A stretch of 64,000 nucleotides of DNA, from the NCBI GenBank assembly GCA_964460135.1, contig CAYWPZ010000001.1:7469-71468 (forward strand), read 5' to 3'. A program made the position numbers and the translations under genes. Below are positions 3,487-62,807 of this stretch, one piece after another. The notes under the pieces are model-generated. The model was not told the origin of the DNA. It was given only the letters and a program-made list of their open reading frames with translations, and did not search any database. Numbering within the stretch: the stretch's first letter is position 1; each line of letters starts with the position of its first letter. This DNA comes from an uncultured Caldilineales bacterium. Its GTDB lineage: Bacteria > Chloroflexota > Anaerolineae > J102.

Positions 3487-4584
3487 ATGTCCATCCAACT
3501 TGTCGATCTAAAAGCTCAATACGACACCATCCGTCCGGCCATCGACGCCGCCATCACCCGCGTGATCGAAAACACCGCCTTCATCATGGGCAAAGAAGTG
3601 ACAGCTTTCGAACAGGCCTTCGCCGACTATTGCGGCGTCAAACATGCCCTGGGCGTCTCCAGCGGCACCTCGGCCCTGTTCCTCACCCTGGCCGGCTACG
3701 GCATCGGCCCCGGCGACGAAGTCATCACCACTCCCTTCACCTTCTTCGCCACCGGCGAAGCCATCTCGCAGACCGGCGCCCGTCCCGTCTTCGTCGATAT
3801 CGACCCTGTCACCTACAACATCGACCCCGCCCGCATCGAGGCCGCCATTACACCCTACACCAAGGCGATCATGCCCGTGCATCTGTTCGGCCAGCCCGCC
3901 GACATGGATGCCATCGACGCCATCGCCAAACGCCGCCGGCTGTTGCTGATCGAAGACGCCGCCCAGGCCCACGGCAGCCGGTACAAGGGCAAGCGCGCCG
4001 GCAGCCTCAGCGACGCCGCCTGCTTCTCGTTCTACCCCAGCAAGAACCTGGGCTGCTACGGCGATGGCGGCGCCGTCCTCACCGACGACGACCACCTGGC
4101 CGCGCGCGTGCGCTCGCTGCGCGACCATGGCCGCACCACCAAATACGAACACGCCGAACTGGGCTACGGCCACCGACTCGACGGCATTCAGGCCGCCATC
4201 TTGTCGGCCAAACTGCCGCATCTGGACGAGTGGAACGCCGGCCGCCGCCGACTGGCCGCCCGCTATGATGAACTGCTGGCCGATTCGCCGCTTGTCACCC
4301 CCCGCCACCTGAGCGAAACCGAGCCGGTCTATCATTGCTACGTCATCCGCACTGCCCAACGCGACCACTTGCTCAAGACCCTGCACGCCGCCGGGATCGG
4401 CGCCGGCGTCCACTACCCCATCCCCCTCCACCTGCAACCGGCCTACCGCTACCTCGAACTCGAACCCGACAGCTTCCCCATCTCCGAACAGGCCGCCGGC
4501 GAAGTCCTCACCCTCCCGCTCTACGCCGAAATGACCGACGAGCAGCAGGACGAAGTAGTCGCCGCCATCCGGGGCGCAGTCTAG
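3487..4584 (+). CDS. DegT/DnrJ/EryC1/StrS family PLP-dependent sugar aminotransferase
   Basis: Whole-length family resemblance, including the conserved FSFYPSKNLG lysine region and a GDEVITTPFTF block. Confidence 0.88.
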   Translation: MSIQLVDLKAQYDTIRPAIDAAITRVIENTAFIMGKEVTAFEQAFADYCGVKHALGVSSGTSALFLTLAGYGIGPGDEVITTPFTFFATGEAISQTGARPVFVDIDPVTYNIDPARIEAAITPYTKAIMPVHLFGQPADMDAIDAIAKRRRLLLIEDAAQAHGSRYKGKRAGSLSDAACFSFYPSKNLGCYGDGGAVLTDDDHLAARVRSLRDHGRTTKYEHAELGYGHRLDGIQAAILSAKLPHLDEWNAGRRRLAARYDELLADSPLVTPRHLSETEPVYHCYVIRTAQRDHLLKTLHAAGIGAGVHYPIPLHLQPAYRYLELEPDSFPISEQAAGEVLTLPLYAEMTDEQQDEVVAAIRGAV

Positions 4585-4614: not shown

Positions 4615-5568
4615 ATGCCCACGCTCTCCGTTCTTATCCCGGCCCACAACGAGGCCGAAAACATCCACGAGCTTGTCGCTCGCACGGCCCAGGCCTTCGC
4701 CGCCCTGGAGGTGGCGGGCGAATTGGTGTTGGTGGACGACGGCAGCACGGACGGGACCGCCGAGCAGGTAGAAACACTTCAAGCCGGTCACCCCTGGTTG
4801 CGGCTGATCCGCCACCGCCGCAACCGGGGTCTCACCGCCGCCCTGCGCTCTGGCTTCCGCGCTGCCCAGGGCGATTACATCCTCTTCCTCCCCGCCGACC
4901 TGGAATCGGACCCGGCCGAGGATGTGCCCAAGCTCTACCACAAACTCCTGGAAGGCTACGACGTGGTTTCGGGCTGGCGACAGGGCCGCGACGATGGCAA
5001 ACAACTGGCTTCCGGCATCTACAACGTTGTCAGCCGGCGTCTGTTCGCGGTGCGCGTCCACGACGCCAACTGGATCAAGGGCTTTCGCCGTGAGGTCATC
5101 GCCGCCCTGCCGCCCTTGCGCTCGGACTGGCACCGCTTCCTGCTTCACATCGCCGCCGACCAGGGCTTTCGGGTGGGAGAGACGCCCACGAACTGGTATC
5201 CGCGCAGGGCCGGGCGCACGCATTTTGGCTTCAGCCGCATCCCCATCTCGCTGCTCGATGTCATCGTCATCCGCTTCTTGCTCACCTTCAGCTCGCGGCC
5301 CATGCGTTTCTTTGGCGGCCTCGGCCTGAGCTCCTTCGCCATCGCCGCTTTCACCACCCTCTTCCTTGCCTACCTCTGGTTCTTCCAGGAACAGACGCAG
5401 AAACGGCCGGTCTTCTGGGCCGCCCTCTTCCTGGCCCTGGCCGGGCTGCTGTTCTTCCTCGTCGGCTTCCTGGCCGAACTCATCGTCGCCCAGGGCGACC
5501 GCCTGAGCGAGTTGGAAGAACGGTTGGCAGAGGTGGATCGGGAGACAGGGGGACGGGGAGACAGGTAG
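4615..5568 (+). CDS. GT2 family polyprenol-phosphate glycosyltransferase (GtrB/ArnC/DPM1-like) with C-terminal TM helices
   Basis: N-terminus LSVLIPAHNEAENI, then a VDDGSTDGT DxD-region, plus two C-terminal hydrophobic helices. Confidence 0.85.
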   Translation: MPTLSVLIPAHNEAENIHELVARTAQAFAALEVAGELVLVDDGSTDGTAEQVETLQAGHPWLRLIRHRRNRGLTAALRSGFRAAQGDYILFLPADLESDPAEDVPKLYHKLLEGYDVVSGWRQGRDDGKQLASGIYNVVSRRLFAVRVHDANWIKGFRREVIAALPPLRSDWHRFLLHIAADQGFRVGETPTNWYPRRAGRTHFGFSRIPISLLDVIVIRFLLTFSSRPMRFFGGLGLSSFAIAAFTTLFLAYLWFFQEQTQKRPVFWAALFLALAGLLFFLVGFLAELIVAQGDRLSELEERLAEVDRETGGRGDR

Positions 5569-44191: not shown

Positions 44192-44274
44192 TTGGAGATT
44201 GGTTATTGGTTATTGGAGATTGTGTTTTCCCCATCTGTGTCGTTCATTTCGCAATCCGCAATCCGAAACTCGCA
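44191..44274. repeat. 12 consecutive heptamers (ATTGGAG ATTGGTT ATTGGTT ATTGGAG ... CGCAATC-type) spanning exactly from stop codon to start codon
   Basis: 84 nt = 12 x 7. The start codon at 44275 is in phase with the heptamer array. Confidence 0.75.
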
Positions 44275-44844
44275 ATGCCTCATCCAGACCTCCTCACCCC
44301 CTACCCTGTCCATCTGGCCGGTGTGACGCGCTATCTGCCACGCGTCGAGATCGCCCCCGGCGTCGTCATCGCCATCCTCAACATCCTCGGCGACACCGAA
44401 CTGACCGAAGCTGTGGCCGCGGCACTGGTGCAGCGCCTCCCCACCGGGGCCGAGTTCCTGGTCACGCCCGAGGCCAAGAGCATCCCGCTCTGCTACGCTA
44501 TGTCGGTCAAGAGCGGCCTGCCCTACGCCGTCCTGCGCAAGAGCTTCAAGCCCTACATGCTCGGCTCCATCAGCGAAGAAGTGCTGAGCATCACCACCGG
44601 CGCGCCGCAGAAGCTGTGGTTGGATGGCAAAGACATCGCGCGGGTGCGAGGCAAGCGCGTGGTCATCGTCGATGACGTGATCTCCACCGGCGGCACCCTG
44701 CGCGGGGCCAGAAGCCTGTTGGAGCAAGCCGAGGCCGACGTGATCGCCAGCGTCGCCATCCTGACCGAAGGCGATGAATCGGCCTGGCGAGATGTGATCA
44801 CCCTCGGCAACCTGCCGGTTTGGTTCGACCGCCCAGCATCGTAA
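44275..44844 (+). CDS. Phosphoribosyltransferase family protein
   Basis: PRPP-binding motif VVIVDDVISTGGT. Confidence 0.75.
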   Translation: MPHPDLLTPYPVHLAGVTRYLPRVEIAPGVVIAILNILGDTELTEAVAAALVQRLPTGAEFLVTPEAKSIPLCYAMSVKSGLPYAVLRKSFKPYMLGSISEEVLSITTGAPQKLWLDGKDIARVRGKRVVIVDDVISTGGTLRGARSLLEQAEADVIASVAILTEGDESAWRDVITLGNLPVWFDRPAS

Positions 44845-44852
44845 ATCCTGAG

Positions 44853-44893
44853 GCGTGAAGACCGGACGCTCCGGCTCACGCTTCACGTTTCAC
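44853..44893 (+). terminator. Hairpin after the PRTase gene (7-bp periodic TTCACGN repeats)
   Basis: Outer stem CGTGAAG / CTTCACG, inner stem CCGGA-cgc-TCCGG, followed by TTTCAC. Confidence 0.4.
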
Positions 44894-44906
44894 ACCTCGC
44901 GCTCCC

Positions 44907-45974
44907 ATGTTCGACAAACTCGACCAGATCGAAGCCAGCTACGACGCCCTCGAAGCCCGGATGGGCGACCCGGCCATTGCCGCCGATTATCAGGAAGCGG
45001 CGAAGTTGGCGCGCGAGCAGGCTGAGCTGCGGGACATCGTCGCCAGCTATCGCCAGCTGAAGCGGGTCATGCAGGAATTGGCCGACGCCCGCCAGCTGTT
45101 GGAGGCCGAGGAGGATGCTGATTTCCGGGCGCTGGCCGAAGCCGAAGTAGGCGCCCTGGAAGCCGAACAGGGGCGCGTCGAGCAGGAGCTGCGGGCTTTG
45201 CTGCTGCCGCGCGACCCGCGCGATGCCAGAAATGTGATCGTCGAAATCCGGGCCGGGACGGGCGGCGACGAAGCCGGGCTGTTTGCAGCCGACCTCTATC
45301 GCATGGTCAACCGCTATGCCGAGAAGCGAAACTGGAAGGCGGCGCTGCTTTCGAGCAGCGAAAGCGGCATTGGCGGCTTCAAGGAAGTGATCTTCGAGGT
45401 GCGCGGGGAGGGCGCCTACAGCCGGTTGAAGTACGAATCGGGGGTTCATCGCGTGCAGCGTGTGCCCGAAACCGAGTCGCAAGGCCGCATCCACACCTCC
45501 ACCGCCACCATGGCCGTGCTGCCCGAGGCCGACGAGGTGGAGGTGAACATCGCCCCTGAAGAGATTCGCATCGATGTTTTTCGCGCTACCGGCCCCGGCG
45601 GCCAGAGTGTGAACACGACCGACAGCGCTGTGCGCATCACCCATCTGCCCACCGGCCTGGTGGTGCAATGTCAGGACGAAAAAAGCCAGCTCCAAAACCG
45701 CCAGCGCGCCCTGACCATCCTGCGCGCCCGGCTGTACGATGCCGAAATGCAGCGCCAGCACGAGGCCATCAGCGCCGACCGGCGGGCGCAGGTCGGCTCG
45801 GCCGAGCGCAGCGAGAAAATCCGCACCTACAACTTCCCCCAAAACCGCGTCACCGACCACCGCGTGGGCGTGAGCATCTACAATCTGCCGGCGGTGTTGG
45901 ATGGCGATCTCGACGTCTTCATCGACGAGTTGGCCGCCGCCGATCAGTCGGCGCGGCTGCAGGTGGGGGAGTAG
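44907..45974 (+). CDS. prfA: Peptide chain release factor 1
   Basis: GGQ motif (GPGGQSVNTT) and RF1-type P-x-T region (RVQRVPETESQGRIHTS). Confidence 0.93.
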   Translation: MFDKLDQIEASYDALEARMGDPAIAADYQEAAKLAREQAELRDIVASYRQLKRVMQELADARQLLEAEEDADFRALAEAEVGALEAEQGRVEQELRALLLPRDPRDARNVIVEIRAGTGGDEAGLFAADLYRMVNRYAEKRNWKAALLSSSESGIGGFKEVIFEVRGEGAYSRLKYESGVHRVQRVPETESQGRIHTSTATMAVLPEADEVEVNIAPEEIRIDVFRATGPGGQSVNTTDSAVRITHLPTGLVVQCQDEKSQLQNRQRALTILRARLYDAEMQRQHEAISADRRAQVGSAERSEKIRTYNFPQNRVTDHRVGVSIYNLPAVLDGDLDVFIDELAAADQSARLQVGE

Positions 45975-46015
45975 GAAGTAGGGAGTATGGAGTATGGAGT
46001 AGGGAGTAGCAGGGA
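45968..46015. repeat. KGGAGTA heptamer x6 spanning the prfA stop and prmC start
   Basis: ggagta ggaagta gggagta tggagta tggagta gggagta, an array of SD-like GGAG units. Confidence 0.7.
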
Positions 46016-46880
46016 GGTTAGGACTGAGCTGGCGGCGGCGACAAAGGTTTTGGCCGGAGCCGGGATCGATGGCGCCCGGCTCGATGCTGAAGTGTTGCTG
46101 GCTCATGTCTTGCGGGTGGAACGCTCCTTCCTCCTCAGCCACCCCACCCTGCCGCTCAGCCTCGCCCAGGCCGCCCTCTATGCTGGCCTGATCCGCCGTC
46201 GCGCCGCTCGCGAGCCGCTGGCCTATCTAAGCGGACGCCGCTGGTTCTACGGCCTGGAGTTTCTGGTCACATCGGCCGTGCTCATCCCTCGGCCCGAGAC
46301 CGAACTGCTGGTCGAGATGGCGCTGGCCTGGCTTGCAGGGCGGCCGGAGGGGGCGACGGTGGTCGATGTCGGGACGGGCAGCGGGGCCATTGCCGTCGCC
46401 CTGGCCGTCCACACACCATCCCGGGTGCGCATTCTTGCCAGCGATAGCTCGGCGGCGGCGCTGGCGGTGGCGCAGGAAAACGCCCGCCAGCATTGCCCCG
46501 GCCGCATCACCTTTCTCTCCGGCGATCTGCTGACCCCGCTCAGCGAGCCGGTCGATCTGATCGTGGCCAATCTGCCGTATGTCGCCGAAGCCAAACGCGA
46601 CGATCTCATGCCCGAAGTGCGCGACCACGAGCCGGCCGCGGCGCTGTTTGGCGGCGAGGATGGCCTGGCCGTGATCGAACGGCTACTTTTGCAGGCCCCT
46701 GCCCATCTGCGGCCCGGCGGCGGCGTCATGTTGGAGATTGGCGCTGGCCAGGGCGAGGCGGCCCGCCTGCTGGCCGGCCGCCTGCTGGCGGGCCGCCATT
46801 TCCCCGCCGCCCGCATCGCCATCCATCCCGACCTCGCCGGCCTCGACCGGGTATTGGTCATCACCCCACCCGCCCCCTGA
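45987..46880 (+). CDS. prmC: Release factor glutamine N5-methyltransferase
   Basis: NLPY (NPPY-type) motif, GxGxG SAM-binding motif (VVDVGTGSGAIAV), and the prfA-prmC arrangement. Confidence 0.88.
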   Translation: MEYGVGSSREVRTELAAATKVLAGAGIDGARLDAEVLLAHVLRVERSFLLSHPTLPLSLAQAALYAGLIRRRAAREPLAYLSGRRWFYGLEFLVTSAVLIPRPETELLVEMALAWLAGRPEGATVVDVGTGSGAIAVALAVHTPSRVRILASDSSAAALAVAQENARQHCPGRITFLSGDLLTPLSEPVDLIVANLPYVAEAKRDDLMPEVRDHEPAAALFGGEDGLAVIERLLLQAPAHLRPGGGVMLEIGAGQGEAARLLAGRLLAGRHFPAARIAIHPDLAGLDRVLVITPPAP

Positions 46881-48043: not shown

Positions 48044-48190
48044 CGAATGCTCATGCACACGCCAGAAACGAGCGATAGTGTTGGACGGCGTGCAGTGCGG
48101 GGGCCTGATCATAGGCTTCGGGGCTGAACTCATCCCGCACTTCGCCGGCATCGAAGTCCGACCACCAGTACATGGCCTTGCGGCGGGGCC

Positions 48191-48224
48191 AGTAACAGTC
48201 AACAATCAACAGTCAACAATCACC
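48191..48224. repeat. RTCAACA heptamer x5 directly abutting the lipoprotein start codon
   Basis: AGTAACA GTCAACA ATCAACA GTCAACA ATCACC|ATG. Confidence 0.7.
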
Positions 48225-48902
48225 ATGCCCACCCGCACACCACGCCCACTCATCGTCCTTTGTGAGGCGGCTGTCTTCGTCGCCCTGCTGGCGCTGGCCG
48301 CCTGCGCACCGGGCGGATGGCTGCCCGTTCCGCCGGCGCCGCTCGCCCCAACGACGGCGCCCCCTGCGGCCACGGCCACACCGGCTGCAGCCACATCATC
48401 ACCAACCATGACGCCTGCCACGACCGACCGCTGGTGCGAAATCAACTTGTGGACGCCCTATCCCTTCACCACGCCGCTGCCTCCCTTTACAGCCACGCCC
48501 ATCGACGGCCTCTATGCCTATTTCGACACGGTGCATGCGGCCAGCCGCACCCCCTGCCGTCGTTGCCCGCCCTATCCGCCCCTGGCCGGCGTCTGGATGC
48601 TGAAGCTGGACAAAGGCATCTTCCGCGTCTTCCATCCCAACACCGGCTGGCGCACGCTCGGCTCGTTCGCGGTCGATGGCGAGCGCGTGACCTTCTTCAA
48701 TGACCCCAACTGCCATCTGGCGGTGGGCGTCTTTGGCTGGCAGGCGGTCGAGGGCGGCCTGAGCATGCAATTGGTGCAGGATGACTGCGAGCTGGGCACC
48801 CGCGCCACGCTGTTCACGGGCGGCCTCTGGCAGAGTTGTCAGCCCCCCAACCAGGAGGCGGCCGTCAGCGGGCACTGGCCGACGCCGCCCGGCTGCGAAT
48901 GA
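48225..48902 (+). CDS. Hypothetical lipoprotein with Pro/Thr-rich linker and Cys-rich domain
   Basis: Lipobox LALAACAPG. The stop overlaps the next gene's start (ATGA). Confidence 0.55.
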   Translation: MPTRTPRPLIVLCEAAVFVALLALAACAPGGWLPVPPAPLAPTTAPPAATATPAAATSSPTMTPATTDRWCEINLWTPYPFTTPLPPFTATPIDGLYAYFDTVHAASRTPCRRCPPYPPLAGVWMLKLDKGIFRVFHPNTGWRTLGSFAVDGERVTFFNDPNCHLAVGVFGWQAVEGGLSMQLVQDDCELGTRATLFTGGLWQSCQPPNQEAAVSGHWPTPPGCE

Positions 48903-51927: not shown

Positions 51928-52381
51928 ATGAATGCCATCGAAGTCCAGGCCCTGCGCTGCGTCTACCAGGCCAAGACGGGCATCCTCCGCCGCGCGGCCA
52001 AGGAAGTCGTGGCGGTGGAGGGCGTCAGTTTTGCCGTCGCGCAGGGCGAGTTGCTTGGCTTGCTCGGTCCCAACGGCGCCGGCAAAACGACCACGATCAA
52101 GATGCTGACCACGTTGCTGATCCCGACCAGCGGCGCCGCAACCATCCTCGGCTTTGATCTGGTCAAGCAGGCCGAGAAGGTGCGCCCGCTATCTCCTGGC
52201 CCCCTACTGGGCTGCCCGCGCCCTCCACGCCACCTCCAGCGGCCAGACTTCGCTGGCCGACGCCGATCTCAGTTGGGCCATCCTCAGCGCCCTCAGCCTG
52301 ATCTACCTCGCGCTTTCGCGCTGGCTATTCCTCCGGATGCTTCATAAAGCCCGCGTCGAGGCGACGTTGGGGGCGATGTGA
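51928..52381 (+). pseudogene. Remnant of an ABC transporter: ATPase N-terminal ~87 aa (Walker A) joined out of frame to a permease-like C-terminal TM tail
   Basis: GPNGAGKTT ... ILGFDLVKQAEKVR, then the frame is lost near 52186. The second frame (52154-52381) encodes ..LSWAILSALSLIYLALSRWLF..., typical of a last TM helix. No Q-loop, signature or Walker B is present. Confidence 0.6.
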
Positions 52382-52458
52382 GCGAGATCGAGGTGTGATT
52401 CGTACAACTGTTCGATTTCGAGTATACTTGGGTACATCTTACTTGGGGTCAGAATTCT

Positions 52459-53457
52459 ATGTCTCAAGAGAGCGACCTGCCGTTCGGGAGCGAGTTCTCT
52501 CCCAGCCAAATCGACTTATCCGAAATCCTGGAAATTGTCGAAACGTACTCGGGGGATGTGCAGGCGTTGCAGGACGCGATCCAGGCTCGCTATTTCAGCG
52601 CACACGGCGGTGGAAGCGCCCGCAATCAGAAGACCCTGGCGATGAACTGCCGGCTGGGGATGAAGGCATACGGCATCATCGACGAGACAGCCACGATCAC
52701 AGCCTTTGGACGCAGGCTCTATCGAATCAGAGAGAATGGGCCGGCCTTGTACACCCTTCTGGCCAGACACATCCTGCTGCACTTGAAGGGCATGACGTTG
52801 GTGCAATGCATTCAAGATATGACGGCGGCCGGCGAGGAAGTCAATTTGACGACGCTGCGCCAGGCTTTGGCCGAGCGCGGCATCCACTATCCGGCGGGTG
52901 GCAAACATCCCAGTATGATGCGTTTGTGGCTTGTCAAAGCAGGCGTGTTTGTGGGCGCTCGTTGGCAGGTGGACAACCTGAGATTGAAAGAAGTGCTGGG
53001 CATCAACCCAGCCGACTTCGACACCCTTGCCCCTCTGACAGCCGCACAACGTTGTTTCTTGCTGGCGCTGGCCAATACAGGCCTCAGCACGCCGCAGCCG
53101 GCGAATGAGATTGCCCGGCTCGCTGCGGCAACTTATGGCGTTCGCTTCCCCGAGAAGAGCTTGCCCAAACTCGTGCTCAACGCCCTGGTCGAGGCTGGAT
53201 ACATTACCGCCACGAAGACGACCGAAGGTCGCGGGGCGAAACCCTTCCTGGTGTCACCCACCGAAAAACTGGTCCACGATGTGGTCGAGCCGCTGCTAGA
53301 ACAGATGAAGTCGCAGACGGATATGAAGCTGGTTCAGTTGATGCGCAAACCGCTTGCCGACGTCCTCGCCGAGCTTGACGCCCAAGACCGGTATATCGCT
53401 GGATTGGCGCTCGAAGCTCCTCCATCGTCATGGTCGATCGACGCGACCTCGATCTGA
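52459..53457 (+). CDS. Hypothetical 332-aa protein on the low-GC island; candidate restriction endonuclease or specificity partner of the adjacent methyltransferase
   Basis: ATG at 52459. Local GC is about 55% against a 68% background. It lies directly upstream of, and co-oriented with, the beta-class MTase. No family motif is recognisable by eye. Confidence 0.45.
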   Translation: MSQESDLPFGSEFSPSQIDLSEILEIVETYSGDVQALQDAIQARYFSAHGGGSARNQKTLAMNCRLGMKAYGIIDETATITAFGRRLYRIRENGPALYTLLARHILLHLKGMTLVQCIQDMTAAGEEVNLTTLRQALAERGIHYPAGGKHPSMMRLWLVKAGVFVGARWQVDNLRLKEVLGINPADFDTLAPLTAAQRCFLLALANTGLSTPQPANEIARLAAATYGVRFPEKSLPKLVLNALVEAGYITATKTTEGRGAKPFLVSPTEKLVHDVVEPLLEQMKSQTDMKLVQLMRKPLADVLAELDAQDRYIAGLALEAPPSSWSIDATSI

Positions 53458-53550
53458 TCCGAAACAAGCCAGTGCACATCGTCGACGCGTTCAACCGCGA
53501 AGCAAGTCATGCGATGACTCTCAAGAAGCTGGAAATTTAGCGAGGAAGTC

Positions 53551-54688
53551 ATGAGCGCCGAACACACGTCTACAGCTACCCTTTTCCTCGAAACCAGCCT
53601 CGGAAAAATCTATCAGGGCGATTCACTCCGCTTTCTCGCTGATCTGGAACCTGCCAATGCCGATCTGATCATAACCAGCCCTCCCTTCGGTTTGGTCAGG
53701 AAGAAAGAATATGGCAATGTCGAAGCCAACCAGTATCTAGACTGGTTCAAACCCTTTGCTGCACAATTTCACCGTGTGCTGAAGGAAACGGGCAGTCTTG
53801 TGATCGACATCGGCGGGGCCTGGAATCCGGGAACGCCGACGCGCAGCCTCTATCACTTCAAGCTGCTGATCATGCTTTGTGAGGAATTCGGCTTTCATCT
53901 CGCCCAGGATTTCTACTGGTGGAATCCTTCCAGGCTGCCCACGCCCGCCGAATGGGTGACAGTACGCCACATTCGCGTCAAAGACGCCATTGATACCGTT
54001 TGGTGGCTTTCCAAGACCCCCCTGGCCCAAGGCGAGCAATCGGCGTGTGCTGCAACCCTACAGCAACAGTATGCAAGAACTGCTCAAAAAGGGCTATCGA
54101 GCCAAAAAACGCCCCTCCGGCCACGACATCAGCGATAAATTCGCGGTGGACAACGGCGCTGCTATCCCTCCCAACCTGATCGCCATTCCAAATACCGAGA
54201 GCAACAGCCACTACCTCCGCTATTGTCAGGAACGAGCCATCACACCTCACCCCGCCCGCTACCCTGCCGCCCTGCCCGAATACTTCATTCGTATGCTGAC
54301 CGATAAAGGCGACCTGGTGTTCGATCCATTTGCCGGCAGCTGCGTCACCGGCGAAGTCGGCGAACGGCTTCAGCGACGCTGGTTGTGCGTTGAACTGGTC
54401 GAAGAGTACTTGCTCGGCGCCCGCGGTCGATTCGAACAAACTGGCATTCCCGAACCGGAGATCAAAACCGCAAGCGATGGGGATGACAACTATTATCGCA
54501 TGCCGCACCCTGGCATCCTCTGGAACGGCGCCACGGAGACGCCATTGGCTGCCGATGGCGGCAAGGCGCGGCATTTTTCCGGCGATCCGGCCAGAAGCGG
54601 CAGCCGGACGACGCCAGCACATGCTCCTCCAAGTCGCTCCTCCGCTCCCCTTCTCGACCTGCTTCGAGAGCAAACGTCTGATGCCTGA
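53551..54688 (+). pseudogene. Beta-class N4-cytosine/N6-adenine DNA methyltransferase (SPPF motif IV before FxGxG motif I), interrupted by a +1 frameshift in a C6 homopolymer (54017-54022)
   Basis: Frame 1 (53551-54138) carries IITSPPFG. Frame 2 (53990-54688) carries VFDPFAGSCVTG. Removing one C from gaCCCCCCtgg gives a continuous ..[20 protein letters not shown].. product. ATG is preceded by GAGGAAG. Confidence 0.7.
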
Positions 54689-54718
54689 TCAGTTCACTCA
54701 TCATCTCATCTTGCCCCG

Positions 54719-54768
54719 CCTCTCCGCCTCCCTCCGCATCTTCTTCTCCGGCGCCTGGCTCTCCCACA
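54719..54768. repeat. 50-bp direct repeat, left copy
   Basis: cctctccgccTccctccgcatcttcttctccggcgcctggctctccCaca, 48/50 identical to the copy at 55472-55521. Confidence 0.85.
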
Positions 54769-54798
54769 GACGCGGGTGAGAACGGCAGCGGCGGAGCC

Positions 54799-55116
54799 TC
54801 ATGCTGCCGCAGTGAGCGGCCGAATGCGGAACAATTCATCACTATGGCGCTGTTTGGATTCCCACAGGTCTCTTGCATGTTGCGCATTCAACCAGAATTC
54901 GGGAGAATTTCCGAAGAGGCGCGACAAACGTAGCGCCATCAACGGCGTCATGGAGCGCTCCTCTCTCAACAGTTCGTGAATCGTCTGCCGCGACACGCCC
55001 AGTTCCGCTGCCAGCGCACTGGCCGATAGCCCGTAGTCCGGCATGAAATCCTCGCGCAGCATCGCGCCAGGATGTGTTGGTGGAATTTGACGAGGCTCGT
55101 TATTTGCGAATGACAT
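54799..55116 (-). CDS. higA: HigA-family antitoxin (XRE-type HTH)
   Basis: Sequence ..LSASALAAELGVSRQTIHELLREERSMTPLMALRLSRLFGNSPEFWLNAQ.. ATG at 55116 behind GAGGAGAAAG, 10 nt after the higB stop. Confidence 0.85.
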   Translation of the reverse strand: MSFANNEPRQIPPTHPGAMLREDFMPDYGLSASALAAELGVSRQTIHELLREERSMTPLMALRLSRLFGNSPEFWLNAQHARDLWESKQRHSDELFRIRPLTAAA

Positions 55117-55126
55117 GGCTTTCTCC

Positions 55127-55408
55127 TCAATGATAATCGGTGACTTCGACATCGAAAGCGTCGCCGTCCACGAAACGAAAGCAAATGCGCCACTGATCAT
55201 TGATGGCGATCGACCACTGGCCTTCTCGGTCTCCCTTCAAGGCGTGCAAGCGGTTGCTCGGCGGTACTTTGAGATCATTCAAGTTCTGTGCCAGATCGAT
55301 GTACTCCAGCCTTCGCAGCGCCAGCTTCGCCAAATCTGGCGGCAGCCGCTTTGACTTGCCGCTGACATACAGCCGCTGCGTTTCTCTGTCAGCGAACGTC
55401 TGAATCAT
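55127..55408 (-). CDS. higB: HigB toxin (RelE/ParE superfamily)
   Basis: 93 aa, [14 protein letters not shown]...[21 protein letters not shown]. Toxin-first order as in HigB-HigA. Confidence 0.85.
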
Positions 55409-55471
55409 AGCCGAATGGTAATCCGTCACGTGACACCTGTCAATCCCCTCGCCCACCCTTTCCATGCCCAA

Positions 55472-55521
55472 CCTCTCCGCCCCCCTCCGCATCTTCTTCT
55501 CCGGCGCCTGGCTCTCCTACA
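55472..55521. repeat. 50-bp direct repeat, right copy
   Basis: cctctccgccCccctccgcatcttcttctccggcgcctggctctccTaca, about 100 bp upstream of rtcB. Confidence 0.85.
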
Positions 55522-55621
55522 TCAGCCTGTTTCGCAGGGCGCGGCCGGCTTCGGGCTGTTCAGCTGGTTCGAGACCATCGCCAAGCGAGTGACTTCAGCC
55601 AAGCCAAAAATCGATCAAACT

Positions 55622-57073
55622 ATGGTCGCCCGCAAAGACCTGCGCCAAATCAACCCCTACCTGTACGAGATTGCCTGTGAATTTCGCCAGGATATGCGCG
55701 TCCCCGCCCGCATCTACGCCGACGAAGCCATCTTGCAGGCGGCCCTGCGCGACCAATCCATCGACCAATTGGTCAACACCGCCACCCTGCCCGGCATCGT
55801 CCAATATGCCCTGGCCATGCCCGACATCCACCAGGGCTACGGTTTCTCCATCGGCGGCGTGGTGGCCACCCGCGCCGATGACGGCGTCATCTCGCCCGGC
55901 GGGGTGGGTTATGACATCAATTGCGGCGTCCGGCTGCTGGCCTCGGACATGGAGGAGGGCGAAGTGCGGCCTTACATGGAAGATCTGGCCACCGCCCTCT
56001 CCCAAAAAATCCCCAGCGGCGTCGGCGTCGGGGGCTTCATCCGCCTCAGCGACCAGGAGATGGAGCAAGTGCTGGAAACCGGGGCGCGCTGGACGCTGAA
56101 GCGAGGCATGGCGCGCAAAGAGGACCTCATCCACACCGAAGAAGAAGGCTCGATGCCCGGCGCTCGCGCCGACAAAGTCAGCCGCGAGGCCAAGAAACGC
56201 GGCCGGGATCAACTCGGCACCCTGGGCGCAGGCAATCACTTTGCCGAGATCGATGTCGTCGATGAGATTTTCGACCAGGAACTGGCCCGCGCCTTTGGCC
56301 TCTTCCCCGGCCAGGTCGTGCTGCAAATCCATTGTGGCTCGCGCGGGCTGGGACACCAGGTCTGTACCGATTATGTCAACACCTTCCAGGCCGTCGTCAA
56401 ACACTACGGCATCGTCCTGCCCGACCGCCAGCTGGTGTGCGCGCCGGTGAAATCGGCCGAAGGGCAAGATTACATCGCCGCCATGGCTGCCGCCGCCAAC
56501 TTTGCCTGGGCCAATCGCCAGGCCCTCAGCCACCAGGCCCGGCAGGCATTCGCCGATGTGTTGGCCGGCAAAGTACGCGGCTACGACCTGCGCCTGGTCT
56601 ACGACATCGCCCACAACATGGCCAAGCTGGAGACGCACGAGGTGGAGGGCCGCAACCTGCGGGTCTGCGTCCATCGCAAGGGCGCCACCCGCGCCTTTGG
56701 CCCTGGCAGCCCTGTCCTCCCGCCCGACTATCGCCAGGCCGGGCAGCCGGTGTTTGCGCCGGGCAGCATGGGCACGGCCAGCTATGTGCTGGCTGGCACC
56801 GAAGGCTCGATGCGCCAGACCTTTGGCTCCACCTGCCACGGCGCCGGCCGCCAGATGAGCCGCGCCGCCGCCAAGAAACAGGTGCAGGGCGGCAGGCTGA
56901 AGCACGAACTGGAAGAGGGCGGGGTGGTGGTGCGCGCCGGCAGCCTGGCCGGGCTGGCCGAAGAGGCCCCCATCGCCTACAAGGACGTGAGCCGGGTGGT
57001 GGATGTCGTTCACAACGCCGGCATCGCCCGCAAAGTGGCCCGGCTGCGGCCGATCGGCGTCGTCAAAGGCTGA
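55622..57073 (+). CDS. rtcB: RNA-splicing ligase RtcB
   Basis: N-terminus aligns with archaeal and bacterial RtcB (..[38 protein letters not shown]..). The C-terminus ..[20 protein letters not shown] aligns as well. Confidence 0.92.
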
Positions 57074-57079
57074 ACGAGC

Positions 57080-58747
57080 GTGTTAGCAGCGCTGGCCCTG
57101 GCCCTGCTGCTCCTGTCCGGGCCGGGTGAAACGGCCGGGAGCATAGTTGCACCTGTGATTCCGGGCCAGGTGCTGGTGGCTGTCGCTCCGGCCGAGGTGA
57201 CGGCAGCGCCGTCTCTGGCCCTCAGAGCCTCGCCCATCGATGGCGTCTTTGTCGTCGCCGTCCCTTTGGGCCACGAGAGGGCCTGGGCCGAACGATTGGC
57301 CGGGCAGCCGGGTGTGCGCTGGGCCGAGCCGAACTATCGGGTGCAGGCGTTGGGCCAGCCAAATGACCCGCTCTGGCCGCAGCAGTGGTGGCAGGCCGCC
57401 ATCGCGACGGCGGTCGCCTGGCAGATTTCCCACGGCGACCCGGCGACGGTGGTGGCTGTGGCCGATACCGGCGTCGATCTCGACCACCCTGACCTCGGCC
57501 GGCTGTGGATCAACCCCGGCGAAATCGCCGCCAACGGCCTGGACGACGATGGCAACGGCAAAATCGATGACCTTCATGGCTGGCACTGGTTTGTGGCCGG
57601 GGATGGCTCGCTACATGAGGATGCCGACATCCAAATCCCGACCGAGAACGACCCCGTTCCCACCACCACCGCCTTTCATGGCATGCATGTGGCCGGGATC
57701 ATCAATGCCGCCGCCGACAATGGCCGCGGGGTGGCAGGCGTGGCCCGCGGCCCACAGATCATGCCGCTGCGTGTGTTGGATCAATTCGGCCTGGGCAGCA
57801 TGGCGCAGGTGGCTGCGGCCGTGCGCTATGCCGCCGACAACGGCGCCACGGTCATCAACCTCAGCCTGGGCGGGCCGGCGAATTCGCAAGTGTTGGCCGA
57901 GGCGGTGGCCGCAGCCACGGCAGCCGGGGTCAGCATCGTTGCCGCGACCGGAAACGCGGCCGGCCCGGTCTACTATCCTGCCGCCCTGCCCCAGGTCATT
58001 GCCGTGGGCGGCGTGGCCGCGGATGACAGCCTCTACACCCGCTCGAATCGCGGCCCAGAGGTCGATCTCGTCGCCCCGGCCGTAAACATCCTCAGCACCT
58101 GGGCCTCGTCCAAGCGGGGGGGCTATCACACCCTGACCGGGACCTCGATGGCCGCGCCCCAGGCAGCCGCGGCCCTGACCCTGCTGATGGGCCTGCGCCC
58201 GGCCGCCTCGACCGAACAACTGCGCCGGTGGCTCTATGAGACCGCGTTCGACCTGGGCCAGCCGGGACGCGATGAGCAGTTCGGCTGGGGTCGCTTGCGG
58301 CTGGATCAGGCCGTGAATGCGGCCGCTTTCGGGCTGGCGCTCTCGGTGCGCGCCAATGCACCCGCGGCAGCGCCCGGCGCGATGGTGGGGCTGCGGGCCG
58401 AGGTGCGGGACGAGGCCGGGGCATTGGTGGGCGGTGGAGTGCCGATCACCCTCACCTGGCCGGGCGAATCCCGGCTGGTTCTGAGCGATGGCGGCGTGGC
58501 GCAGGCCGAGGCGCGGCTGCCGTCCGAGCTGCAAGCCGGCGAGACCATCACCCTCACCGCCGCCTGGAACGGGCAGGTGGCTACGGCCGCCGTTCGCATC
58601 GACCCGCCCCCCACCCGGACCCCCACACCTTCGCCCGACCCCACGCCTACGCCCACCCCCGCGCCTGGTTTCCGGTTCTATTTGCCGCTGCTGTCAATCG
58701 GCGATCACGCCCCGGTTTTCACTTCTGGGCCGGCTGCGGACAGATGA
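57080..58747 (+). CDS. S8-family (subtilisin-like) secreted serine peptidase with C-terminal Pro/Thr-rich tail
   Basis: Catalytic Asp block (VAVADTGVD), His block (HGMHVAG) and Ser block (GTSMAAPQAAAA). GTG start with a signal-peptide-like N-terminus. Confidence 0.85.
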   Translation: MLAALALALLLLSGPGETAGSIVAPVIPGQVLVAVAPAEVTAAPSLALRASPIDGVFVVAVPLGHERAWAERLAGQPGVRWAEPNYRVQALGQPNDPLWPQQWWQAAIATAVAWQISHGDPATVVAVADTGVDLDHPDLGRLWINPGEIAANGLDDDGNGKIDDLHGWHWFVAGDGSLHEDADIQIPTENDPVPTTTAFHGMHVAGIINAAADNGRGVAGVARGPQIMPLRVLDQFGLGSMAQVAAAVRYAADNGATVINLSLGGPANSQVLAEAVAAATAAGVSIVAATGNAAGPVYYPAALPQVIAVGGVAADDSLYTRSNRGPEVDLVAPAVNILSTWASSKRGGYHTLTGTSMAAPQAAAALTLLMGLRPAASTEQLRRWLYETAFDLGQPGRDEQFGWGRLRLDQAVNAAAFGLALSVRANAPAAAPGAMVGLRAEVRDEAGALVGGGVPITLTWPGESRLVLSDGGVAQAEARLPSELQAGETITLTAAWNGQVATAAVRIDPPPTRTPTPSPDPTPTPTPAPGFRFYLPLLSIGDHAPVFTSGPAADR

Positions 58748-60155: not shown

Positions 60156-61658
60156 ATGAACGGAAACAACACCCGGTTTTCCCTGCGAGTCGAGCATGTC
60201 TCCAAGGCCTTCCCCGGCGTGCAGGCGTTGGCGAATGTCAGCCTGGAGGTGAACGGCGGGGAAGTGTTGGGGCTGGTAGGAGAGAACGGCGCCGGCAAAT
60301 CGACGCTGATCCAGATTCTGTCGGGCGCGCTCATACCCGATAACGGCAGGGTGCTGATCGACGGCAAGGAAATGACTTTCCGGCACCCGCGCGAGGCTGA
60401 GGCGGCAGGGGTCAGCCCGGTGTATCAGGAGCTGAGCCTGGTGAACAACCTGAGCGTGGCCGAGAATATCTTCGCCGGGCGACAACCCACCGGTGCGGCG
60501 GGGTTGATCGATGTGGGGGCCATGAATCAGGCGGCGCAGGAGCTGCTGTCGCAATTTCAGGTTGATTTCAGCCCCGCGACCAAAGTGAGCAATCTGTCCT
60601 TGGGTAATCAGCAACTGGTCGAGATCGTCAAGGCCATGTCCCGCAATGCCCATCTGCTCATCCTCGATGAGCCGACCTCGTCGCTTTCGTTGCAGGAGGC
60701 GGGGCTGTTGTTCGAGCGGCTGCGGCAGCTCAAGCAGCAGGGGCTGGCGATCATCTTCGTCTCGCACCACCTGGAAGAGGTGTTCGAGGTCTGCGATTGC
60801 ATCAGTGTGTTGCGCGATGGCAAGTATGTGGGCACGGTCAAGGCGGCAGAGTCGAGCGAGCACGAGATCGTGAGCATGATGGTGGGCCGCGATATCGGCG
60901 AGTTGCAGCGCCAGGACGAGACGGCGGGGGCAGTGGCGCTGGAAGTAGCCGGCCTGACCCGCAAGGGCGTATTCGAGGATGTCAGCTTTGCCGTGCATGC
61001 GGGCGAGGTGCTGACTTTCTTCGGGCTGGTGGGGGCGGGACGCAGCGAGGTGGCGCGGGCCATCGTGGGCATGGATGTCGCCACCGGCGGCGCAATCAGG
61101 GTCAAAGGCAGACAGACACGGCCCGCCCACCCTTCCGACGCCATCAACCTGGGGCTGGCCTATCTTTCGGAGGACCGCAAGCGCGAGGGGTTGTATCTGG
61201 ACAAGACGATCAAAGAAAACTTCCTGGTCACCAACCTGCGGCGGGTGTCGCCGGGCGGCTGGCTGAGGTGGCGGGCGCTGCACGAACTGGCTGCAAAGTA
61301 CGCTCGGCTGCTGGATGTGCGCACGCCCAGTCTCGATCAACGGCTGCGGAATCTGTCGGGCGGCAACCAGCAGAAGGTGATGCTGGGGATGTGGCTGGCT
61401 ACCGAGCCGGATGTGCTGATCGTGGACGAACCGACGCGCGGCATCGATGTGGGTACCAAGCAGGAGATTCACCGCCAATTGCGCCAATTGGCCGCCGCGG
61501 GCAAGGCAGTCATGGCGATTTCGTCCGATTTGCCTGAGACGCTGATCATCAGCGACCGCATCGCCGTCATGCGCAAGGGCCGGCTGGTGGGCATCATTCC
61601 CCAGGCCGAGGCCAGCGAAGAGCGGATCATGCAGATGGCGGCCGGTGTGGGGACGTGA
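60156..61658 (+). CDS. Sugar ABC transporter ATP-binding protein with duplicated ABC domains (CUT2; RbsA/MglA/XylG-like)
   Basis: Two Walker A sites (GENGAGKST; GLVGAGRSEV) and two signature motifs (LSLGNQQLVEI; LSGGNQQKV). RBS AAGGAG. Confidence 0.9.
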   Translation: MNGNNTRFSLRVEHVSKAFPGVQALANVSLEVNGGEVLGLVGENGAGKSTLIQILSGALIPDNGRVLIDGKEMTFRHPREAEAAGVSPVYQELSLVNNLSVAENIFAGRQPTGAAGLIDVGAMNQAAQELLSQFQVDFSPATKVSNLSLGNQQLVEIVKAMSRNAHLLILDEPTSSLSLQEAGLLFERLRQLKQQGLAIIFVSHHLEEVFEVCDCISVLRDGKYVGTVKAAESSEHEIVSMMVGRDIGELQRQDETAGAVALEVAGLTRKGVFEDVSFAVHAGEVLTFFGLVGAGRSEVARAIVGMDVATGGAIRVKGRQTRPAHPSDAINLGLAYLSEDRKREGLYLDKTIKENFLVTNLRRVSPGGWLRWRALHELAAKYARLLDVRTPSLDQRLRNLSGGNQQKVMLGMWLATEPDVLIVDEPTRGIDVGTKQEIHRQLRQLAAAGKAVMAISSDLPETLIISDRIAVMRKGRLVGIIPQAEASEERIMQMAAGVGT

Positions 61659-61715
61659 TGTCGGATGGAGTGAGGTTGTAGCGATTGATGATCTTGGTTG
61701 ATTGTGGACGGAATG

Positions 61716-61756
61716 ATCACGAATGGCACGAATGGACGAATGACACGAATTCTCGA
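61716..61756. repeat. CACGAATGG 8/9-mer tandem repeat x4 in the ATPase-permease intergenic region
   Basis: cacgaatgg cacgaatgg acgaatga cacgaattc. It shares a CGAATGAATTC-like core with the 18959-18997 element. Confidence 0.6.
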
Positions 61757-61820
61757 TACGCAATACAGAATAGACCCCTAAACGAACAATTCCCTTCCGA
61801 AAAAACACGGAGAGCAAAAC

Positions 61821-62807
61821 ATGACGACTTCAGAAACCACCATGCAGGTATCGACAAAACCATCGCTCGGTCGGCGCCTGGTCGAGCAGCGCGAGATCAG
61901 CATTTTTTTGGTCGTACTTTTCGGGGCGATCCTGCTGTCGTTGCTCTCGAAGAATTTTCTGAATCCGGCCAACCTCAGGACACTCGTGCTGGGGCTGTCG
62001 TTCGACGCCATCGTAGCTGTGGGCATGACGGTGCTGATGGTGTCGGGGGGCTTCGATCTCTCGGTCGGTTCGGTGCTGGCCTTGGCCGGCGCGGTGGCGG
62101 GCTATGGCATCGTGTTGCTCAAGCTGCCCGTGCCGGTGGGCATCGCCGCTGGTCTGCTCACGGGTGTGTTGGTAGGGCTGATCAACGGTCTACTCGTCTC
62201 CAAAGTGCGGGTGAACCCCCTCATCGCCACGCTGGGCATGATGCAGATCGCCCGTGGGGCGGTGTTCTTGCTGACGTCCGGCCTCGGCATCCCCAACTTG
62301 CCCGATTCGTTCAACCAGATGGCGCAGGGCAAGGCGCTGGGCTTCCAGTATCCGGTCTATTTCATGCTGGTCATTGTCATCGTCGGCGACCTGTTGCTGC
62401 GGCGCTCGCGTTTCTTCCGCCAGAGCTATTTCGTGGGCGGGAACGAGCGCAGCGCCCGGCTTTCGGGCATTCGCGTCGGCCAGGTTCAGATCAGCAACTA
62501 CATCATCACCGGCTTGATGGCGGCGGTGGCGGGCTTGCTGCTGACGGCGCGCATGGGCACAGCTTCGGTGTCGGCGGGCCTGGGCGTCGAGCTGCGGGTG
62601 GTGTCGGCGGTCGTCATCGGCGGGGCCAGCCTGGCCGGCGGCGAAGGCACGGTGCTCGGTTCCATCTTTGGCGTAGCCCTGATGGCTTTGATCAACAATG
62701 GTCTCAATCTGCTGGGCGTCAACCCGTATTGGCAAAACATCGTCATCGGCGCCGTGCTGGTGATCGCTGTCGCCGCCGATGCGCTCAGCCGTCGCAATCG
62801 GGCATGA
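61821..62807 (+). CDS. Sugar ABC transporter permease (RbsC/BPD_transp_2 family)
   Basis: About 9 TM helices and the conserved region ..TGLMAAVAGLLLTARMGTA... Confidence 0.88.
   Translation: MTTSETTMQVSTKPSLGRRLVEQREISIFLVVLFGAILLSLLSKNFLNPANLRTLVLGLSFDAIVAVGMTVLMVSGGFDLSVGSVLALAGAVAGYGIVLLKLPVPVGIAAGLLTGVLVGLINGLLVSKVRVNPLIATLGMMQIARGAVFLLTSGLGIPNLPDSFNQMAQGKALGFQYPVYFMLVIVIVGDLLLRRSRFFRQSYFVGGNERSARLSGIRVGQVQISNYIITGLMAAVAGLLLTARMGTASVSAGLGVELRVVSAVVIGGASLAGGEGTVLGSIFGVALMALINNGLNLLGVNPYWQNIVIGAVLVIAVAADALSRRNRA

Follow-up and report, generated by a model that had tools for sequence, protein, structure and literature searches.

Probable remains of two independent insertions, a restriction-modification pair and a higBA cassette, in an ABC-2 exporter operon of an Anaerolineae-like Chloroflexota bacterium

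Gene content of the locus

The window analyzed here is a stretch of DNA of 64,000 nucleotides. The segment at positions 52382-55521 and the genes beside it contain the features given below, for several of which the reference is a related Anaerolineae contig (L001).

51886..52190, + strand: 5' stub of an ABC-2/DrrA-type ATPase gene that retains just the Walker A region and stops at the junction of a 1300-nt deletion
52188..52381, + strand: ABC-2 permease 1, 3' tail; its frame differs from that of the ATPase stub
52459..53418, + strand: restriction endonuclease remnant, N-terminal 320 codons, with predicted winged-helix DNA-recognition modules
53419..53420, + strand: endonuclease deletion junction; 2 nt stand for 291 nt of L001 (2652-2942)
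53421..53540, + strand: 3' end of the endonuclease gene, 39 codons and a stop, in a frame that differs from that of the N-terminal part
53551..54688, + strand: pseudogene of an M.PvuII-like beta-class (putative N4-cytosine type) DNA methyltransferase, with an extra C within 54017-54022
54711..54768, + strand: 5' end of permease 2, repeat copy 1, with a TTG start; 22-codon open reading frame ending at 54779
54769..55463, - strand: inserted higBA cassette, exactly between the two repeat copies
54799..55116, - strand: higA antitoxin gene, helix-turn-helix protein of 105 aa (TIGR02607, 98.4 bits, cut-off 47.7; PF01381)
55127..55408, - strand: higB toxin gene, 93 aa (PF05015, E 1.9e-20)
55415..55443, - strand: promoter-like site TTGACA-17-TACCAT upstream of higB, from a consensus scan only
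55464..55592, + strand: permease 2 start, repeat copy 2, running on into what is left of permease 2; 651 nt are missing internally at about 55546
55622..57073, + strand: RtcB RNA ligase gene, native right flank, intein-free (PF01139, E 1e-173)

Five deletions or insertions separate the window from L001 in the base-level map. The ATPase stub matches only residues 45-95 of PF00005 and residues 40-100 of TIGR01188 (drrA), and window positions 52069-52190 align with L001 positions 1-122 at 96.7% alignment identity. The alignment resumes at 52188, which corresponds to L001 position 1423, so that L001 positions 123-1422 (1300 nt) are missing from the window; the junction contains a GCT microhomology. 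The permease 1 tail ends in ...ARVEATLGAM, as does permease 1 of L001. The first-pass annotation, made from the sequence alone, had described the remains of a sugar ABC transporter, an ATPase stub and a permease tail joined out of frame, and had proposed that the site was remodelled. The fusion and the remodelling agree with the 1300-nt deletion relative to L001, but the transporter is an ABC-2/DrrA-like exporter and does not import sugars. On the other side, window positions 55462-55546 and 55546-55587 correspond to L001 positions 4272-4356 and 5008-5049, respectively. The operon is no longer intact: of its ATPase gene the Walker A stub survives, of permease 1 the tail, and of permease 2 two fragments. 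The RtcB protein of the right flank shows 96% amino-acid identity with the exteins of L001 RtcB.

The restriction-modification genes

The open reading frame of 332 aa was first annotated as an unidentifiable protein. As annotated, it has no match in Pfam, NCBIfam or PADLOC, and an exact-sequence lookup found nothing. Its identity came from a homology search and not from profile libraries: judged by its homologues, it is a gene of known kind, a restriction endonuclease whose Mrr_cat nuclease domain is gone. Intact relatives have about 456 aa and are widespread (1994 homologues at E <= 0.001), and neither PADLOC nor NCBIfam offers a model for the family. A sequence search against PDB gave no match among solved structures, and fold comparison gave matches at the domain level only.

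The Mrr_cat domain covers residues 318-431 of the protein P0001 (Pfam). The stretch of L001 that has been lost (2652-2942, a net deletion of 289 nt) encodes endonuclease residues 323-419, the core of Mrr_cat. The catalytic residues E349, D351, Q365, Q367 and K369 are invariant across 48 homologues and all lie within the deleted stretch; the catalytic domain of a Type II restriction-modification endonuclease is therefore lacking from the window copy, in which residues 323-419 are deleted. The annotated frame continues past 53418 out of frame up to 53457, and residues 420-457 of P0001 are found by tblastn at 53421-53534 in the other frame.

The methyltransferase gene is broken as well. Its two halves lie in differing frames; both match PF01555, each above the gathering threshold, and they match PADLOC PDLC03323 at positions 11-162 and 151-300. 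A run of cytosines that is C5 in L001 and ACTCCC in a further homologous locus (L004) is C6 in the window; this additional C interrupts the frame, and the first open reading frame stops at 54138, ahead of AdoMet motif I. The motif SPPF (about 53677-53688) precedes FAGSCVTG (about 54329), which is the order of the beta class. The class given by the first-pass annotation was thus correct (PF01555, with SPPF and then FAGSCVTG), but the split of the reading frame into two had gone unreported. The orthologous methyltransferase of L001 matches M.PvuII (PDB 1BOO) with E 8e-104 over residues 14-302. Once repaired, the window protein differs from this L001 orthologue at about 15% of positions, as counted from the alignment. 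N4-cytosine would be the modified base, to judge by the SPPF motif and by homology to M.PvuII. Palindrome avoidance did not point to one recognition sequence: strong depletion was seen for GGGCCC, CCCGGG and CTCGAG, and mild depletion for CAGCTG (13 observed vs 21.6 expected).

Since the methyltransferase is a pseudogene, the restriction-modification half of the segment presumably defends nothing any more, and the pair as a whole is probably non-functional now. Lineage-specific substitutions in the endonuclease are 23 synonymous and 13 non-synonymous in the window vs 18 and 8 in the L001 lineage, and those in the methyltransferase are 24 and 9 vs 22 and 6. The relative-rate test of the two lineages gave no clear non-synonymous excess, and the changes are still mostly synonymous. 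Substitutions that are mostly synonymous and similar to those of the L001 lineage indicate that the decay of these genes is recent.

The higBA cassette

The HigB/HigA pair of the first-pass annotation was recognized by profile searches, HigB by PF05015 (73.5 bits, cut-off 27, with the whole profile covered end to end) and HigA by TIGR02607 (98 bits). The gene higB (55408-55127) lies upstream of higA (55116-54799) with a gap of 10 nt. The promoter-like site of higB overlaps the palindrome GTCACGTGAC and falls within the part that is conserved among higBA relatives. At least 380 metagenome relatives of HigB were confirmed, 80 of which, retained for comparison, are 71-84% identical; the full-length relatives show 72-84% identity. 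In a comparison with 80 related loci, DNA similarity was limited to 54805-55445, and no transposon-like ends were found outside it.

The insert of 695 nt contains higB, higA and their promoter region and nothing else. It is bracketed by a 57-nt direct repeat (54712-54768 and 55465-55521; 53/57 identical), both copies of which map to the permease 2 start in L001 (4275-4331). The cassette is likely the sole module that is still active; HigB would act as a ribosome-dependent mRNase and HigA as antitoxin and repressor.

Base composition and mobility genes

The segment 52382-55521 has a GC content of 57.4% against a window mean of 65.4%, and it is the lowest-GC 3.1-kb stretch of the window, as windows of the same length average 0.654 with a standard deviation of 0.030. 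Its 400-nt windows have GC minima of 0.52-0.55, and the flanking genes have GC 0.66-0.70. The dip described earlier is therefore real, but it is milder than the figure of about 53% given for it. The weaker GC3 bias also holds (0.60-0.72 in genes of the segment vs 0.81-0.86 in the flanks).

The absence of an integrase or tRNA gene, likewise noted earlier, was confirmed: no integrase or transposase domain was found by Pfam in the 18 open reading frames scanned (about 41-60 kb), and no tRNA gene is present in the whole window. Within the scan, the open reading frames 44203-44886, 44883-46142 and 48078-48902 had no Pfam match; those at 57080-58747 and 60156-62807 lay outside it. By these searches the locus does not qualify as an integrase-mediated genomic island, which would have an integrase or recombinase gene and a tRNA or att target. 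Its cargo is of restriction-modification and toxin-antitoxin type, as had been supposed, without an integrase or tRNA gene.

Related genomes and independent datasets

In L001 the two permease genes of an intact operon enclose an intact restriction-modification pair, and higBA is absent from the site. The window pair is 85% identical to that of L001, a divergence like that of the flanks. An empty site, in which permease 1 and permease 2 are adjacent, was found in five more distant relatives (L005, L008, L009, L010 and L011), as the first-pass annotation had asked. The empty site, the lowered GC and the lowered GC3 bear out the foreign origin of the segment. A recent arrival in this genome does not stand, as the pair occurs at this site in L001 too, likewise with lowered GC, and DNA identity to that genome is 85-93%. 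Relatives with the same genes, context and GC had been named as evidence that would speak against the island, and L001 provides this in part.

In L006 the same spacer is occupied by an EcoRV-like system, in which PF02086 is accompanied by PF09233 (EcoRV, E 5e-100 for the latter), and in L007 by two small genes that match PemK weakly as a pair. No target duplications were found around these two inserts. The cargo of the spacer is thus a PvuII-methyltransferase-type pair (window and L001), an EcoRV-type system or a MazF-like pair, and higBA lies about 60 nt further on.

The endonuclease homologue adjoins a PF01555 methyltransferase in five unrelated contexts, as the endonuclease does in the window, and no integrase was found beside the pair in those five. 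DNA similarity between L001 and L004 is confined to the two coding regions; neither in L001 nor in the comparison of L001 with L004 were flanking repeats or conserved ends of the unit found. The search for a relative closer than L001, by which the steps could be dated, found none.

The C6 run, the endonuclease junction and the repeats are identical in JGI 3300037501, JGI 3300043177 and Logan SRR12686701. The same strain was recovered by lookups of HigB, an S8 peptidase and the 195-aa methyltransferase fragment. Window position 52794 is a common breakpoint of three contigs, for which a mixture with intact alleles might account.

History of the locus and alternative explanations

The segment is very probably the wreck left after an ABC-2 exporter operon, in an Anaerolineae-like Chloroflexota bacterium, received two independent insertions and decayed. 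Comparison with L001 and the empty sites shows that a two-gene Type II restriction-modification unit entered the short spacer that separates the two permease genes, in an ancestor common to the window and L001 organisms. This unit consisted of a modular endonuclease (winged-helix modules and a C-terminal Mrr_cat PD-(D/E)XK domain) followed by an M.PvuII-like, putatively N4-cytosine-type methyltransferase. In the window lineage, higBA then entered the first 60 nt of permease 2 as a bare operon with a promoter-like site of its own, duplicating 57 bp of its target. Decay followed, in which the net deletion of 289 nt took the nuclease core of the endonuclease, the insertion of one C broke the methyltransferase, and deletions of 1300 nt and 651 nt ruined ATPase/permease 1 and permease 2, respectively. 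The endonuclease was presumably lost ahead of the methyltransferase, because the opposite order is lethal. The higBA insertion presumably came before the decay of the transporter; by cutting permease 2 off from the operon promoter, it may have begun that loss. Recombination between the 57-bp repeats could have removed higBA from L001, in which case L001 did not lack it from the start. The position of the pair common to the window and L001 could alternatively reflect homologous exchange of the whole operon and not vertical descent.

In the reading that corresponds to the first-pass annotation, the segment would be one composite, recent and functional defence island, with an uncharacterized effector, a methyltransferase and HigBA inserted in a single step beside the ABC transporter. 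The uniformly low GC of the three modules (0.58, 0.57 and 0.57) and the absence of mobility genes would suit such an island, but L001 has the restriction-modification pair at that site minus higBA, and the 57-bp target duplication belongs to higBA alone, so the two units are separate insertions. The pair is moreover as diverged from that of L001 as the flanks are (85% identity), which speaks against recent arrival, and function is contradicted by the missing nuclease domain and the frameshifted methyltransferase. A single functional island is thus very improbable. It is slightly harder still to believe that the organism has an intact restriction-modification system and that the deletion and frameshift are artefacts of assembly or sequencing: a C6 homopolymer is a classic site of error, but both the C6 run and the 289-nt junction recur at 100% identity in contigs of three separate datasets, and a loss of 289 nt cannot be a base-calling error. 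The same homopolymeric tract might be taken for a phase-variation switch that turns methylation on and off. Phase-variable tracts usually have 8 or more bases, and C6 is too short for efficient slippage; the homologous run of L004 is interrupted (ACTCCC), the length of the run is constant in all three independent samples and the partner endonuclease is dead, which together leave this explanation next to no credence.

Retention of the 332-aa remnant as a stand-alone sequence-specific DNA-binding protein, one that might serve as a regulator, for example, or block the former recognition site, is unlikely, if less so than the preceding explanations. The 320 codons are open, with no further stop or frameshift, the cleavage module has been cleanly removed from the predicted winged-helix modules, and three samples share the allele. 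However, nothing points to selection acting on the truncated form in particular, and the deletion is probably simply young, because the substitution counts are in line with those of the intact L001 lineage. The adjoining genes are in decay, and the new C-terminal 12 residues are frame-shifted and have no counterpart in intact homologues. The segment consists of old insertions of known kinds that are now decaying; this is ordinary decay of selfish genes and not a new defence system.

Comparison with known systems

The methyltransferase is a clear homologue of M.PvuII (PDB 1BOO), with the beta-class order in which SPPF lies ahead of FxGxG. The locus differs from the PvuII system in that the endonuclease of the window family is not related to the small R.PvuII but is a modular protein of about 456 aa that carries Mrr_cat at its C terminus, in that no C-protein gene is present at the window locus, and in that the methyltransferase copy of the window is frameshifted. 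The endonuclease appears to resemble Mrr, FokI, BpuJI, PaqCI and R.BspD6I, which combine winged-helix modules with a PD-(D/E)XK domain, at the domain level only. It differs from typical Type IIS systems in pairing with a single methyltransferase and, as far as can be told, is not methylation-dependent; unlike in these modular enzymes, the cleavage domain is wholly lost in the window copy. The HigBA unit resembles type II toxin-antitoxin systems of its kind in its PF05015 toxin upstream of a TIGR02607 antitoxin, compact operon, promoter-like site and palindrome, and by sequence it would be without notable difference from them.

Defence-gene hotspots between conserved core genes have been described in pan-genome studies of E. 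coli and Pseudomonas. The present locus is similar in that one spacer between conserved genes holds varied cargo, or none, in related genomes (about nine genomes sampled); it differs in being operon-internal, with no tRNA gene or integrase beside it.

Insertion with long target duplication is a class treated by Furuta, Abe and Kobayashi (2010; PMC2853133) and reportedly by Nobusato et al. (2000). Such inserts are flanked by direct repeats of >30 bp that are single copy in the uninserted genome, are <20 kb, are without a mobility gene and hold endonuclease and methyltransferase genes (PMC2853133), and in PMC2853133 and PMC3874152 the class is described for restriction-modification units only. 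The higBA insert has such repeats (57 nt, single copy in L001), is small (695 nt) and contains no mobility gene, so its structure resembles this class; it holds no endonuclease and methyltransferase genes and formally falls outside the definition. At this locus the unit with a duplication of >30 bp, single copy in L001, and no mobility gene is a toxin-antitoxin unit; the restriction-modification unit is without a flanking duplication.

Biological meaning

The apparent mystery of the locus is resolved in that its "unknown defence protein" is a restriction enzyme without its nuclease domain, in an old, decaying island. The window copy provides a clean natural case of the death of a restriction-modification system, by deletion of the nuclease domain and frameshift of the methyltransferase. 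That copy is dead; the intact family, which combines a modular Mrr_cat endonuclease with an M.PvuII-like methyltransferase, could merit characterization. Selfish modules pile up here at one operon-internal spot without a recombinase. It is possible, though less likely than not, that throughout this lineage of Anaerolineae the short spacer between the two permease genes receives addiction-type modules without the help of an integrase. If that were so, the route of long target duplication would move toxin-antitoxin cassettes too.

A decayed restriction-modification system

The segment 52382-55521 is foreign DNA made up of two units. Its components, all of known kinds, are a Type II restriction-modification system in decay, a HigBA cassette and an operon reduced to pseudogenes.

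Features of the segment
52459-53418: endonuclease remnant, P0001 residues 3-322 (tblastn)
53421-53534: P0001 residues 420-457 in a different frame (tblastn), with a stop at 53538-53540
53551-54138: methyltransferase ORF, N-terminal half of PF01555
53990-54688: methyltransferase ORF, C-terminal half of PF01555, overlapping the former in a different frame
54712-54768: 57-nt direct repeat, copy 1
54769-55463: higBA cassette, exactly between the repeats
55465-55521: 57-nt direct repeat, copy 2 (53/57 identical to copy 1)

The 332-aa ORF had no match in the Pfam, NCBIfam or PADLOC profile libraries and was considered unidentifiable in the first-pass annotation. A homology search (1994 proteins at E <= 0.001) identified it as a truncated Mrr_cat restriction endonuclease. 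Among the matches listed, most are ~456 aa long with a C-terminal Mrr_cat restriction-endonuclease domain (PF04471), and the top match is 87% identical across the first 96% of the query. The tblastn placement of P0001, an intact homologue, indicates that two bases have taken the place of 97 codons, leaving the gene 289 nt shorter. The Mrr_cat domain of P0001 spans residues 318-431 (Pfam) and the deleted part is the nuclease core; E349, D351, Q365, Q367 and K369, invariant in 48/48 homologues, all fall within it. In an AlphaFold model of the intact homologue (pLDDT 82.5), helical and winged-helix modules extend to ~residue 330 and are followed by an alpha/beta nuclease fold. The ORF in the window is thus what remains of a modular restriction enzyme that has kept its predicted recognition half and lost its cleavage half. 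The intact family has no PADLOC or NCBIfam model, and none of the solved structures matches it in sequence; the window copy is dead.

The two methyltransferase ORFs cover positions 11-162 and 151-300 of one and the same PADLOC model for Type II methyltransferases. The frame break is one extra C, as seen by comparing the window (AAGACCCCCCTGG) with L001 (AAGACCCCCTGG), a related Anaerolineae contig carrying the intact pair at the same site, and L004 (AAGACTCCCTGG), another contig with the pair. Dropping one C recovers a 21-residue stretch colinear with the L001 and L004 methyltransferases. The assignment to the beta class was correct, the motif order being SPPF, then FAGSCVTG, and the intact L001 orthologue matches the N4-cytosine methyltransferase M.PvuII (1BOO) with an E value of 8e-104. 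The product is predicted to be inactive, as the first ORF ends ahead of the AdoMet-binding motif.

Remodelling of the operon

The gene order in L001 (Logan ERR13256239) is ABC ATPase, ABC-2 permease 1, endonuclease (458 aa), methyltransferase (381 aa), ABC-2 permease 2, NOV_C-domain gene, RtcB with an intein, and S8 peptidase. Compared with L001, to which it is 85-97% identical (blastn map), the window is missing 1300 nt between ATPase codon ~100 and a point close to the permease 1 end, 291 nt of the endonuclease gene, 651 nt of permease 2, the NOV_C gene and the 1527-nt intein, and has gained higBA. Microhomology at the deletion junctions is 1-3 nt only. The transporter, previously taken for a sugar ABC system, is ABC-2/DrrA-like instead; a true sugar ABC ATPase is encoded to the right of it, at 60156-61658.

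The intein (PF14890) occupies L001:6607-8133 and is missing at window 55919-55924, with exteins 96% identical. The NOV_C-domain gene (L001:5050-6303), between permease 2 and RtcB, has a very low GC content (0.45-0.49) and matches the C-terminus of TmtA weakly in PADLOC. Only 34 nt (55588-55621) stand in its place in the window, so this position is a second variable spot directly adjoining the first. The longest ORF over RtcB (55415-57073, 552 aa) reads in frame through the permease 2 remnant; by comparison with L001, the true start is 55622 (MVARKDL...).

Assembly error is very unlikely to account for the lesions, since exact-protein lookups recovered contigs from three datasets (JGI 3300037501, JGI 3300043177 and Logan SRR12686701) that are 99.9-100% identical to the window and jointly include the methyltransferase C6 run, the junction of the endonuclease deletion, and higBA with its two repeat copies. 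Three contigs from independent datasets (L103, L104 and L105) all start exactly at window 52794, within the endonuclease remnant, and two of them stop at 54280 or 54281. These shared ends may reflect co-existing strain variants breaking the assembly graph.

Composition and occupancy of the site

A sliding-window profile gives a GC content of 0.66-0.72 for the flanks and a drop to 0.52-0.62 at ~52.2-55.8 kb. The segment has a GC content of 0.574 against a window mean of 0.653 and is the lowest 3.1-kb stretch among same-length windows across the 64 kb (mean 0.654, sd 0.030). GC3 is 0.60-0.72 in its genes; the adjoining genes, for FAD oxidase, RtcB and S8 peptidase, have 0.81-0.86. Elsewhere, 1-kb windows also reach a GC content of ~0.59-0.61. 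The dip thus exceeds local variation and is real, although the earlier value of about 53% overstated it. The sugar-type ABC importer at 60156-62807 (500-aa double-ABC ATPase and RbsC-like permease) is moderately low in GC (0.58-0.61), so some native genes also dip below the window mean.

Several GC-rich palindromes are far scarcer than expected in the whole window (observed vs expected): GGGCCC (2 vs 26.6), CCCGGG (7 vs 32.8), CTCGAG (7 vs 24.5) and GGATCC (1 vs 6.1). Their scarcity suggests that other systems exert, or once exerted, restriction pressure. The depletion of CAGCTG is only mild (13 vs 21.6).

A genome-collection scan with permease 2 placed the lineage in Chloroflexota/Anaerolineae. 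An empty site was found in five relatives.

Contents of the permease 1/permease 2 spacer
L005, L008, L009, L010, L011: empty, permease genes 20-60 nt apart
Window, L001: Mrr_cat endonuclease and M.PvuII-like methyltransferase
L006:8076-9957 (Anaerolineae MAG): EcoRV-like system, D12-class methyltransferase and EcoRV-family endonuclease (PF09233, E 5e-100)
L007:9307-9808 (Caldilineales MAG): small gene pair, one member of which matches PemK/MazF weakly (E 4e-4, short of the Pfam threshold)

All three inserts have a GC content below that of their flanks. L009:7544-10807 holds a tandem duplication of the permease pair (permease 1, permease 2, permease 1', permease 2') after a single ATPase gene.

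At least five unrelated neighbourhoods contain the endonuclease-methyltransferase pair, and in none does an integrase or transposase lie beside it. DNA similarity between copies stops at the coding-region limits, and no repeats flank the pair. At L102:5029-8520, a 72-aa RHH protein, possibly a controller, precedes the pair, which has a short UvrB-like fragment on one side and a topoisomerase/gyrase A-like gene on the other; the pair may have disrupted a gene there. The absence of integrase and tRNA genes was borne out: ARAGORN found no tRNA gene anywhere in the window, and a Pfam scan of 18 ORFs at ~41-60 kb, other than the S8 peptidase gene, gave neither an integrase nor a transposase domain. 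The scanned ORFs matched AlaX-like, metallo-beta-lactamase, TPR, PrmC, HAD, FAD-oxidase, RtcB and CT398-like domains, and three had no Pfam match. The S8 peptidase has PF00082 in an identical copy (L015).

The higBA cassette

HigB (93 aa, PF05015) and HigA (105 aa, TIGR02607) are both intact, in the usual toxin-first order. By consensus scan, a putative promoter (TTGACA-17-TACCAT) lies just upstream of higB and overlaps the palindrome GTCACGTGAC. This cassette is likely the only module now active in the segment. Each repeat copy aligns to the first 57 nt of L001 permease 2; copy 1 now starts a 22-codon ORF and copy 2 a 42-codon permease 2 remnant. At least 380 higBA relatives were confirmed by tblastn, of which the 80 kept have 71-84% protein identity. 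Their DNA similarity is confined to 54805-55445, and the comparison revealed no transposon ends. The structure matches "insertion with long target duplication", which has repeats longer than 30 bp and no mobility gene and which PMC2853133 and PMC3874152 both describe for restriction-modification units only, but the cargo here is a toxin-antitoxin cassette.

History and significance

The proposal of one mobile island stands as to foreign origin but not as to a single unit. The restriction-modification unit is older than the split between the window and L001 lineages. Substitutions specific to each lineage were polarised with L004. The synonymous/non-synonymous counts for the window and L001 branches are 23/13 vs 18/8 in the endonuclease and 24/9 vs 22/6 in the methyltransferase, respectively. 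Substitutions are thus still mostly synonymous and alike in both branches, which points to inactivation that is recent relative to the split. Viability of a restriction-modification host requires endonuclease failure before methyltransferase failure; on this biology, the endonuclease would have been lost first and the methyltransferase after.

The locus is of modest interest in two respects: among the few relatives sampled, different addiction modules have used one operon-internal spacer repeatedly, and a long-target-duplication structure surrounds a toxin-antitoxin cassette.
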